A program made the translations under genes and the position numbers. The notes under the pieces are model-generated. The model saw only the letters and a program-made list of their open reading frames with translations, was not told the DNA's origin and did not search any database. From a virus (taxonomy: Duplodnaviria; Heunggongvirae; Uroviricota; Caudoviricetes): DNA of 9,471 nt. This document shows positions 6,713 to 9,471 of the stretch, piece by piece (within the stretch, counting starts at the first letter, position 1; the number at the start of each line of letters is the position of its first letter). The stretch spans positions 1 through 9,471 of the IMG/VR virus record IMGVR_UViG_2534681810_000007; one strand, written 5' to 3'.

Positions 6713-7003
6713 TCATCTTTTAACTCCATATACCGCCAATACCCGTTTCATCGCGGCACTCTGGCGACACTCCTTAAAAATTAGGTTCGTGCTCATCTTT
6801 CCTTCCCGTTCTTCCTTGGTAGCAAACCGGTAATACACCGTTCGCCAGACCTTACCTTCGATAACCAGAAGACCTGCCCGTGCCATTTTAGCCGCGGCCT
6901 GATTTATGCTGGTTACTGTTGCGCCTGTTAGCGCGGCAACGTCCGGCGCACAGAAGCTATTATGCGTCCCCAGGTAATGAATAATTGCCTCTTTGCCCGT
7001 CAT
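6713..7003 (-). CDS. ren: Ren protein (Rex-exclusion resistance)
   Basis: 96 aa, MTGKEAIIHYLGTHNSFCAPDVAALTGATVTSINQAAAKMARAGLLVIEGKVWRTVYYRFATKEEREGKMSTNLIFKECRQSAAMKRVLAVYGVKR, near-identical to lambda Ren by recall. ATGA overlap with the P stop. Confidence 0.9.
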   Translation of the reverse strand: MTGKEAIIHYLGTHNSFCAPDVAALTGATVTSINQAAAKMARAGLLVIEGKVWRTVYYRFATKEEREGKMSTNLIFKECRQSAAMKRVLAVYGVKR

Positions 7004-7243
7004 ACACTTGCTCCTTTCAGTCCGAACTTAGCTTTGAGTTCTGCGATCTTCGCCAGAGCCTGTGCACGATTTAGAGGTCTACCGCCCATGACAGGAAGTT
7101 GTTTTACTGGTTCAGGGATCGCCTCACCACGGTTAATTCTCGCAGTCATATGGACAAGCTCATCTGCGGCCTTACGGCGTAATTCCGCATCAGTAAGCGC
7201 ATTGGCCCGCATGTTCTGATACAGGTTGGTAACCAGCCAGTAG
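7000..7243 (-). pseudogene. P: Replication protein P, 3' fragment only (truncated at the IS boundary)
   Basis: The reading frame ends ...ELRRKAADELVHMTARINRGEAIPEPVKQLPVMGGRPLNRAQALAKIAELKAKFGLKGASV, matching the lambda P C-terminus. The first 9 codons of the track ORF 7000..7269 lie inside the IS inverted repeat, so only about the last 80 codons of P remain. Confidence 0.8.
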
Positions 7244-7315
7244 TGTAGTGGCACACTGAATTTGGCCACCTGAACAGAGGTGATATGCTCACCTCAGAAC
7301 AACACAGGTGCTCCA

Positions 7316-7618
7316 ATGAAAAAAAGAAATTTCAGCGCAGAGTTTAAACGCGAATCCGCTCAACTGGTTGTTGACCAGAACTACACGGTGGCAGATGCCG
7401 CCAAAGCTATGGATATCGGCCTTTCCACAATGACAAGATGGGTCAAACAACTGCGTGATGAGCGTCAGGGCAAAACACCAAAAGCCTCTCCGATAACACC
7501 AGAACAAATCGAAATACGTGAGCTGAGGAAAAAGCTACAACGCATTGAAATGGAGAATGAAATATTAAAAAAGGCTACCGCGCTCTTGATGTCAGACTCC
7601 CTGAACAGTTCTCGATAA
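7316..7618 (+). CDS. IS3-family transposase OrfA (helix-turn-helix / leucine-zipper subunit)
   Basis: [51 protein letters not shown]...[21 protein letters not shown] matches IS911 OrfA by recall. The track ORF starts 12 codons earlier at a weaker site. Confidence 0.9.
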
Positions 7619-8484
7619 TCGGGAAACTCAGAGCGCATTATCCTGTGGTCACACTCTGCCATGTGTTCGGGGTTCATCGCAGCAGCTACAGATACTGGAA
7701 AAACCGTCCTGAAAAACCAGACGGCAGACGGGCTGTATTACGCAGTCAGGTACTTGAGTTGCATAACATCAGCCATGGTTCTGCCGGGGCAAGAAGCATC
7801 GCCACAATGGCAACCCTGATAGGCTTCAGAATGGGGCGCTGGCTTGCCGGCAGGCTCATGAAAGAACTGGGACTGGTCAGTTGCCAGCAGCCTGCGCACC
7901 GTTATAAACGAGGTGGTCGTGAACATGTCACTATCCCGAATCACCTTGGGCGGCAGTTCGCAGTGACAGAGCCAAATCAGGTATGGTGCGGCGACGTGAC
8001 GTACATCTGGACGGGGAAACGTTGGGCATACCTTGCCGTTGTTCTCGACCTGTTTGCAAGGAAACCGGTAGGTTGGGCAATGTCGTTCTCTCCGGACAGC
8101 AGACTGACCATCAAAGCGCTGAAAATGGCCTGGGAAATCCGCAGTAAACCAGCCGGGGTAATGTTCCACAGCGATCAGGGCAGCCACTATACAAGCAGGC
8201 AGTTCCGGCAGTTACTGTGGCGTTACCAGATCAAACAGAGTCTGAGTCGACGAGGAAATTGCTGGGATAACAGCCCGATGGAGCGCTTCTTCAGGAGTCT
8301 GAAAAACGAGTGGATACCGGTGACGGGTTACATGAACTTCAGCGATGCTGCCCATGAAATAACGGACTATATCGTTGGGTATTACAACGCGCTCAGGCCG
8401 CACGAATATAACGGTGGGTTGCCACCAAATGAATCGGAAAACCGATACTGGAAAAACTCTAAAGCGGTGGCCAGTTTTTGTTGA
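7564..8484 (+). CDS. IS3-family transposase OrfB (DDE catalytic domain), expressed as an OrfAB fusion by -1 frameshifting
   Basis: The -1 frame relative to orfA is open from the ATT at 7564 to the TGA at 8484. DDE residues are present in the contexts [17 protein letters not shown] and NSPMERFF. The stop lies inside the right inverted repeat. Confidence 0.85.
7567..7573 (+). other. A-AAA-AAG slippery heptamer: programmed -1 ribosomal frameshift site of the IS
   Basis: AAAAAAG at 7567..7573, with AAA and AAG in the orfA zero frame, located in the orfA/orfB overlap as in IS911 and IS3. Confidence 0.7.
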
Positions 8485-8493
8485 CCACTACAT

Positions 8494-9471
8494 AAAGAGT
8501 TCGGATTAGGCAGAGACAGACGTATAGCAATCACTGAAGCTATACAGGCCAATATTGAGTTGCTATCCGGGAACAGGCGTGAGTCACTGATAGACAGAAT
8601 TAAAGGCGCTGACGCAATCACTCTTCATGCGTGGCTTGACCGATATGAAACAATCCTCAGCGAGAGGGGTATCAGGCCGAAAACTCTACTCGACTACGCC
8701 AGCAAAATCAGGGCAATCCGAAGAAAATTGCCGGACAAACCGCTCGCTGACATATCAACGAAAGAGGTGGCAGCAATGCTAAACACCTACGTAGCAGAAG
8801 GTAAAGCGGCTTCCGCAAAATTAATCAGGTCAACCCTTGTTGACGTTTTTCGTGAGGCAATAGCCGAGGGGCATGTGGCTACGAATCCGGTAACAGCAAC
8901 CCGCACAGCAAAGTCAGAAGTAAGGCGCTCAAGGCTGACAGCTAATGAGTATGTCGCGATTCACCATGCAGCCGAACCTCTCCCAATCTGGCTGAGGCTT
9001 GCGATGGATTTGGCCGTCGTTACAGGTCAGAGAGTCGGCGATTTGTGCAAAATGAAATGGTCAGACATAAACGACAACCATCTTCACATTGAACAGGGTA
9101 AAACAGGGGCTAAGCTCGCCATTCCGCTGACGCTAACGATTGACGCGCTCAATATCTCATTGGCCGATACACTACAGAAATGCAGGGAGGTCAGCGGCAG
9201 TGAAACAATAATTGCATCAACGCATCACGAACCGCTTTCCCCGAAAACAGTATCTAAGTATTTTACAAAGGCGAGAAATGCATCTGGACTCTCATTTGAT
9301 GGAGACCCGCCAACATTCCATGAACTGCGTAGCCTGTCGGCGAGGCTATACCGGAATCAGATTGGCGATAAGTTTGCTCAACGTCTTCTCGGGCATAAAT
9401 CAGATTCAATGGCGGCGCGGTATAGGGACAGCCGAGGGAGAGAATGGGACAAAATTGAAATCAACAAATGA
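8494..9471 (+). pseudogene. int: Lambda-family tyrosine integrase lacking its N-terminus (about 34 codons removed at the IS junction)
   Basis: Translation from 8494 reads KEFGLGRDRRIAITEAIQANIELLSGNRRESLIDRIKGADAITLHAWLDRYE... and ends ...RGREWDKIEINK with a TGA at 9469..9471, collinear with lambda Int from about residue 35. Catalytic-domain residues appear present (GQRVGDLC, HELRSLSARLY, LLGHKSD, MAARYRD). There is no native start codon; the first in-frame start is a TTG at 8560. Confidence 0.85.

Follow-up and report, generated by a model that had tools for sequence, protein, structure and literature searches.

How did the replication gene P and the integrase gene int of a lambda-type prophage come to abut the two ends of a single insertion sequence (IS)? 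This question is raised by a 9,471-nucleotide (nt) stretch of DNA from a Caudoviricetes virus (IMG/VR record IMGVR_UViG_2534681810_000007, positions 1 to 9,471), hereafter called the window. Within it, an IS911-like element, the focal IS, is bordered on its left by the 3' fragment of P (P') and on its right by an int gene without its 5' end ('int) (Table 1). A preliminary description of the window had proposed that the whole early, immunity and replication region between the two genes is missing, and the comparisons reported here bear this out. The loss was, with high probability, brought about by the IS itself.

The window corresponds with 100% identity to positions 2914663-2924133 of Escherichia coli RM14723, a strain from dog faeces. 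The comparison set consisted of 5,426 complete E. coli genomes, of which only three cover at least 80% of the window, all with the IS present: RM14723 itself and the human isolates Z1323HEC0355 and 2015C-4136CT1, in which the window is near-identical. The P'/IS junction and the IS/'int junction were found in these same three genomes and nowhere else in the set. A literature query with the three strain names returned nothing relevant.

The two junctions and the missing interval

Alignment of both junctions to lambda P and int placed the breakpoints between codons 153 and 154 of P and between codons 32 and 33 of int. On the P side, the fragment corresponds to residues 154-233 of lambda P and is identical to them at 80 of 81 aligned positions. 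These are the last 80 codons, in agreement with the count of about 80 codons first given for this fragment; the match to Pfam Phage_lambda_P (PF06992) covers positions 112-162 of 162. When the window is compared with the full-length, intact P of strain Z1323PEC0014, identity ends at the IS edge (7243/7245), and the native sequence across the break reads ...CCAGTAG/TGCGCG... (the slash marks the break). A functional lambda P is full-length (~233 amino acids), and residues 154-233 alone remain here. RefSeq annotates 7000-7284 (minus strand) as an intact 94-amino-acid 'replication protein P' (WP_074453951.1), which is composed of the last 80 P codons preceded by a start and ~13 codons from the antisense strand of the left end of the IS. 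We regard this entry as an annotation artefact, at most a chimeric open reading frame (ORF).

On the int side, 'int aligns with lambda Int residues 33-355 (73% amino acid identity, 237 of the 323 aligned positions). Two other strains have, beside mdtA, an intact 357-codon int with which it shows 100% identity, and because this identity starts at nucleotide 96 of the intact gene, the break is assigned by alignment to codon 32/33. The truncation of int had thus been recognised correctly, but the start of the fragment, previously put at about codon 35, is codon 33, codons 1-32 being the ones that are missing. The native int sequence across the break is ...GGACGGG/TAAAGAG.... Searches against Pfam gave a Phage_integrase match for 'int, together with a match to the arm-binding domain (Arm-DNA-bind_1) at positions 38-73 of 74 only. 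A functional lambda-type Int has arm-binding, core-binding and catalytic domains; 'int retains the core-binding domain and the complete catalytic domain and has lost most of the arm-binding domain.

Both breakpoints coincide to the base with the IS termini, one bordered by native P and the other by native int. The triplets flanking the IS differ, TAG on the left and TAA on the right, as had been noted at the outset. Since the native sequences across the two breaks carry them, these triplets are simply P and int sequence. The reading frame of 'int (8494 onward) coincides with that of the IS gene orfB, the orfB stop codon TGA (8482-8484) and three more codons lying between them. An orfB-'int fusion protein is impossible without readthrough, and the common frame, which would be met in 1 of 3 cases, is probably a coincidence.

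In lambda, the interval equivalent to the missing one is nt 28788-40039 of NC_001416 (11.25 kb), which holds xis, the ea genes, exo, bet, gam, kil, cIII, N, rexAB, cI, cro, cII, O with ori, and P codons 1-153. This interval, from xis as far as P codon 153, is absent; what is retained follows the order of lambda and resembles it closely, with nucleotide identities of 98.8% for P' and ren and 96-97% for NinG-NinI-Q, and the amino acid identity given above for Int. The early genes were looked for elsewhere in the prophage, where finding them would have spoken for a different gene order: no repressor, cro, N, O, exo, bet, gam, cII or xis is annotated in the prophage of RM14723 between ibs and mdtA. 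This prophage is bordered by ibs/yegL at one end and by mdtA at the opposite end, so that both of its ends lie at one chromosomal locus. Its gene order is nleD, nleH', nleC, nleB2, tail fibre, lom, an IS, V', U, Z, the head genes, terminase, Rha, Rz, R, S, Q, the nin genes, ren, P', the focal IS and 'int. A search of the prophage for an att core gave as its best result an imperfect 10-bp match, TAATTTTTTG vs TAATTTATTG, which is unconvincing.

The reciprocal junctions, searched for with a chimeric query (int 5' end, TAA and left inverted repeat; right inverted repeat, TAG and the rest of P), were absent from all 5,426 genomes; coverage in the carriers did not exceed 26%, and the only two matches that reached 50% were plasmid-borne IS copies with internal deletions. 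Because these hypothetical partner junctions occur in no genome, the early region was lost and not moved. With xis gone and Int without its arm-binding domain, the prophage should be unable to excise. It would also be unable to replicate, since O and ori are gone and only the last third of P is left, and it would lack an immunity repressor. That the arm-less Int or an IS-fused C-terminal fragment of P' is expressed and has a function is a rather unlikely possibility.

Table 1. Coordinates of features in the window and of two elements outside it
Feature	Position	Strand	Remarks
Lysis cassette	768..1914	-	three genes annotated as intact coding sequences
Rz	768-1205	-	annotated intact; embedded Rz1-like ORF at 821-1012
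SAR-type endolysin RrrD	1202-1699	-	annotated intact
Class II holin	1699-1914	-	annotated intact
pR'-like late promoter, predicted	3700..3740	-	-35 TTGACT, 17-nt spacer, -10 GAAACT; alignment to lambda
Q late antiterminator	3775..4398	-	204/208 aligned positions identical to lambda Q
ren	6713..7003	-	annotated; first intact gene beside P'
P', 3' fragment of lambda-type replication gene P	7000..7243	-	codons 154-233 + stop
Left flanking triplet TAG	7241..7243	.	native P sequence
IS911-group IS3-family insertion sequence (focal IS)	7244..8492	+	1249 bp, apparently intact; ends fixed by yegL copy
Left terminal inverted repeat (IRL), 5'-TG	7244..7270	+	inverted-repeat pair, 27 nt, 74% complementary, imperfect
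orfA, 100 amino acids	7316..7618	+	Pfam HTH_Tnp_1
Programmed -1 frameshift heptamer, A AAA AAG	7567..7573	+	in register with orfA frame
orfB frame, rve DDE domain	7572..8484	+	Pfam rve 2-102 of 102, E=1.6e-31
Right terminal inverted repeat (IRR), CA-3'	8466..8492	+	partner of IRL
Right flanking triplet TAA	8493..8495	.	native int sequence, GGT AAA
'int, lambda-family tyrosine integrase without codons 1-32	8494..9471	+	RefSeq pseudogene
Second IS3-family element, ~1258 bp	L004 27861-29118 (RM14723, outside window)	inverted	65% nt identity to focal IS
Island in capsid gene E	L001 1916-13322 (RM14723), ~6.7 kb left of window start		also in L007, L008

The focal IS, which starts TGTAGTGG and ends CCACTACA, shows the features by which the IS3 family is defined. 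Members of this family are 1.2-1.5 kb long, have imperfect terminal inverted repeats of the form TG...CA, carry K or R seven residues after the catalytic E and produce a 3-4 bp target duplication; the element described here agrees in length and repeats, has two overlapping ORFs with a slippage heptamer, and makes a 3-bp duplication (see below). Slippage by -1 at the heptamer would give a stop-free predicted OrfAB fusion of 389 amino acids through to 8484, and the RefSeq annotation from the Prokaryotic Genome Annotation Pipeline (PGAP) likewise presents the transposase as a 'programmed frameshift' join. OrfAB matches the model NF033516 (IS3 family transposase) over positions 1-368 of 369 with 376.6 bits (cutoff 160), and its catalytic residues D227, D287 and E323 form a DD(35)E motif, with K330 seven residues past the E. 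Full-length OrfA and OrfAB, an in-frame A6G slip site, the DD(35)E motif and identity to a recently transposed copy together make the IS look functional, in line with its first assessment as apparently intact.

Assignment of the element within its family rests on nucleotide identity: ~91%, over its full length, with copies given the label IS911 family by PGAP, and 88.7% with ISEc52; RefSeq names it 'IS3 family transposase' only. IS911 itself was rejected as an identification, the ~91% identity to PGAP-labelled IS911-family copies being below the convention of at least 95%. We therefore treat the element as a distinct IS911-group element or isoform, for which 'IS911-like', the name it had been given, is apt. 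With IS911 it has in common the TG...CA ends, a 100-amino-acid OrfA, the -1 frameshift on A AAA AAG, the DD(35)E motif and the 3-bp duplication. The length of IS911, which we take to be ~1250 bp, is matched by the 1249 bp found here, and the IRL is nearly that of IS911, the terminus of which is presumably TGAAGTGG (against TGTAGTGG in the focal IS). The OrfAB of IS911 is 382 amino acids long, as compared to 389 here. The layout of OrfA, OrfAB produced through a programmed -1 frameshift and short terminal inverted repeats is that described for IS911 (PMC2909936).

Origin of the deletion

A search of the host genome for other IS copies and for a matching partner junction yielded a further copy and no partner junction. 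The copy lies inside yegL of RM14723, 38 kb off and in the same orientation, agrees with the focal IS at 1249 of 1249 positions, and has a perfect GGT/GGT target duplication around it; its junction with yegL is limited to the three carrier genomes. This copy fixes the ends of the focal IS independently, and since it makes a 3-bp duplication while the focal copy has the unequal flanks TAG and TAA, the focal copy is rearranged and not a simple insertion, as had been argued from the flanks alone. A third match to the focal IS is present in RM14723, at a position that was not located, and the carrier genomes hold several copies 100% identical to it.

The yegL copy has itself been involved in a deletion. 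Comparison of 2015C-4136CT1 (L007 18460-19708) with RM14723 (L004 19071-29118) revealed that in the former the yegL copy keeps its left GGT and has lost the right one, together with 8.8 kb of DNA to its right. The deleted segment contained ibs, nleD, nleC, nleB2, the tail fibre gene, lom and a second IS3-family element, which amounts to the loss of three type III secretion system effector genes. The new junction is exact: the IRR of the yegL copy directly adjoins the base found next to the IRL tip of this second IS in the sister strains. The second IS has the tip TGTAGTGGCACA, which equals that of the focal IS, and unequal flanks (GTT and ATC). By its structure, the event in 2015C-4136CT1 is a one-sided IS-adjacent deletion by the same element in the same lineage.

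We consider it highly probable that the loss of the early region was IS-mediated, either by adjacent deletion or by recombination between two IS copies. These are the two mechanisms named in the preliminary description, and they still lead; everything else taken together retains only a small chance. To adjacent deletion specifically we would give an even chance. On this view, an E. coli lineage would have carried a lambdoid prophage with ibs/yegL and mdtA as its chromosomal neighbours, and a single IS would have inserted into this prophage, in P or in int. Intramolecular transposition or strand transfer from one IS end into the other of the two genes would then have deleted the intervening ~11 kb, a segment that begins at int codon 32, takes in xis, the recombination genes, N, the immunity region and O, and ends at P codon 153. 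The product would be one IS copy that keeps its original flank at one end only, the flank at the other end being new and not duplicated, which would explain TAG versus TAA.

Our leaning towards this route is due to the one-sided deletion at the yegL copy in 2015C-4136CT1 and to the IS150 cases of the long-term evolution experiment (LTEE). In three LTEE populations, IS-associated deletions without a target duplication were adjacent deletions by the IS3-family element IS150 in 14 of 14 cases (PMC11708052). Those deletions resemble the present one in having an IS3-family element at the junction, no target duplication and one original flank kept; they differ in that the ancestral single insertion was seen directly at earlier time points, whereas no such ancestor is available here (PMC11708052). 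Several observations weigh against adjacent deletion. No intermediate, namely a single-insertion ancestor with one of the junctions, was found among the 5,426 genomes. The presence of several identical IS copies per genome and of three IS3-family elements in the prophage region makes recombination between two nearby copies quite plausible. The deletion in 2015C-4136CT1, for its part, could have been mediated by microhomology and not by transposase, because the terminal 8 bases CCACTACA match between the two ISs concerned.

Recombination between two copies would require one IS in P, with TAG duplicated, and another in the same orientation in int, with TAA duplicated; RecA-dependent exchange would then have excised ~11 kb and one IS as a circle that was lost. 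Such an exchange predicts exactly what is observed, a single IS whose left flank comes from one insertion and whose right flank comes from the other, and recombination between identical ISs is among the known reasons for the lack of a target duplication (PMC11708052). The 100%-identical copies in the carriers fit it, as do the three IS3-family elements within ~40 kb of the prophage, which suggest an insertion hot spot. However, two ISs would have had to insert independently, in the same orientation and within 11 kb of each other, and then to recombine, neither single insertion was found in the 5,426 genomes, and the other deletion seen in this lineage required one IS copy only; we regard it as possible, at a chance clearly below even. 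Quite improbable, in our estimate, is a deletion that occurred without the IS, for example by illegitimate recombination at the TA that the flanks CCAG-TA-G and GGG-TA-A have in common, with the IS captured at the break at the same time or inserted there afterwards. In that case either no duplication was made, or TAA/TAA later mutated to TAG. One-step movement of an IS into breakpoints without duplication has been proposed for other ISs (PMC11708052), but here the IS would have had to land precisely on the fusion joint, on simple insertion, as in yegL, it makes a clean 3-bp duplication, and the mutated-duplication version needs a point change that recreates the native P base. Moreover, the IS-free P'-'int fusion (joint CCAGTAAAGAG) was not found in the 5,426 genomes, the three with at least 80% window coverage all carrying the IS.

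It is also conceivable that nothing was deleted, the prophage genes being arranged in an unusual order or the early region having been carried elsewhere by an inversion or translocation that the IS mediated. Only general lambdoid mosaicism speaks for this: P-nin-Q is most like the ybhC prophage of another strain, and int is of the mdtA-site type. The chance is close to negligible, given that both prophage ends are at the single locus between ibs/yegL and mdtA, that repressor, cro, N, O, exo, bet and xis are missing from the whole annotated prophage and that the carriers lack the reciprocal junctions. The only other IS copy located in RM14723 is, in addition, a simple insertion in the same orientation, which cannot account for an inversion. 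A related candidate, in which the P side and the int side stem from two prophages joined by chromosomal rearrangement, was rejected, both ends being at the ibs-mdtA locus.

A narrower proposal within adjacent deletion is that the focal and the sister-strain deletions were both intramolecular transpositions targeted to an inverted repeat, the IS911-group transposase attacking DNA beside mimics of its own end. The second IS at the sister-strain end point, dissimilar as it is overall (65% identity), matches the focal IS in its first 12 terminal bases, and at the focal P junction native GTAGTG directly adjoins the IRL, which starts TGTAGTGG. Insertion targeted next to an IS end was reportedly observed by Loot et al. 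2002 and Rousseau et al. 2008, so far in plasmid assays with IS911. We think the proposal unlikely to hold for these two deletions. If it did, the P side would be the target and the IS would first have sat in int, and natural genomes would record targeted insertion next to an IS end, across IS species, as a force driving prophage grounding.

A probably grounded prophage and its retained genes

IS-driven decay and 'grounding' of effector-carrying lambdoid prophages are documented (PMC2669165, PMC6379469), and the event described here is an ordinary instance of this known process, in which mobile elements make prophages decay. DLP12, Rac and Qin of K-12, the pool of prophages in O157 Sakai and the Stx prophage of S. 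dysenteriae were immobilised in the same way, by ISs and deletions at int/xis and early genes, and likewise keep their cargo and Q-lysis modules (PMC2669165, PMC6379469, PMC7819885). The present prophage has its own breakpoints (P 153/154, int 32/33), its own site (ibs-mdtA) and a different IS. Excision, replication and immunity would have been lost in a single IS-associated deletion of ~11 kb, while cargo and the Q-lysis genes were kept without the early-operon promoters. An effector-carrying E. coli lineage, with nleB2, nleC and nleD on the prophage, would thereby have fixed a lambdoid prophage permanently, and the exact breakpoints are now recorded. The three carriers, one with a further IS-adjacent deletion, form a small natural series of prophage erosion by IS3-family elements. 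The significance of the locus lies mainly in its correct annotation, including that of the 94-amino-acid 'replication protein P' artefact.

The retention of Q, the late promoter and a full lysis cassette, pointed out in the preliminary description, is confirmed. The pR'-like promoter has the -10 hexamer GAAACT (TAAATT in lambda pR'), and homology to lambda is lost near +1, at lambda's pause-inducing element (CAATAAT here, CAACGAT in lambda). The intergenic stretch 3540-3775, which includes this promoter, is identical over 236 bp in a structurally complete prophage of Z1323PEC0014. In place of the lambda S and R lysis genes, the cassette has genes of the phage-21 type, a class II holin and a signal-arrest-release (SAR) endolysin. 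A consensus scan of 6400-8700 on both strands found no sigma-70-like promoter, although weak or hybrid promoters could escape such a scan, and nothing in the scan points to the IS as a promoter for P'-nin-Q or for 'int. As the early operon that would express Q is gone and no sigma-70-like site was found in the scan, the lysis module is probably silent.

Further damage to the prophage lies outside the window. Compared with an inducible lambdoid prophage, it lacks annotated early genes, the tail genes V' to J are deleted and the major capsid gene E is split. The tail deletion, which removed the genes between V' and lom (G to J), has the second IS3-family element, different from the focal IS, at its junction. 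E is split by an 11.4-kb island into fragments of 246 nt and 789 nt, which overlap by ~9 nt relative to the intact gene of 1026 nt. The island encodes a tyrosine integrase, AlpA-type regulators, an Icd-like protein, a primase and SSB, along with its own E-like capsid, D-like decoration and I-like tail assembly genes and an Abi protein; in RM14723 its own int and its primase gene are frameshifted. In two strains the int of the island is intact, and there the island may still be able to excise. The same island/E junction occurs in 173 of the 5,426 genomes. A class of helper-embedded phage-inducible chromosomal islands (PICIs), '11capE', has been published (PMC10111431), to which the island in E corresponds. 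The helper of the embedded PICI has in this case lost all early functions.

Between Q and the holin gene there are three ORFs without a lambda counterpart, within 2057-2455 (plus strand) and 2780-3523 (minus strand): one for a 247-amino-acid multi-pass membrane-like protein without a Pfam match, a DUF3927 ORF, and an opposite-strand ORF for a hypothetical protein of 132 amino acids. They are conserved across many prophages of enterohaemorrhagic and enteropathogenic E. coli (EHEC/EPEC). Downstream of Rz, where lambda has bor, the window contains an intact gene for a Rha/ORF11CD3-domain regulator (1-618, minus strand).

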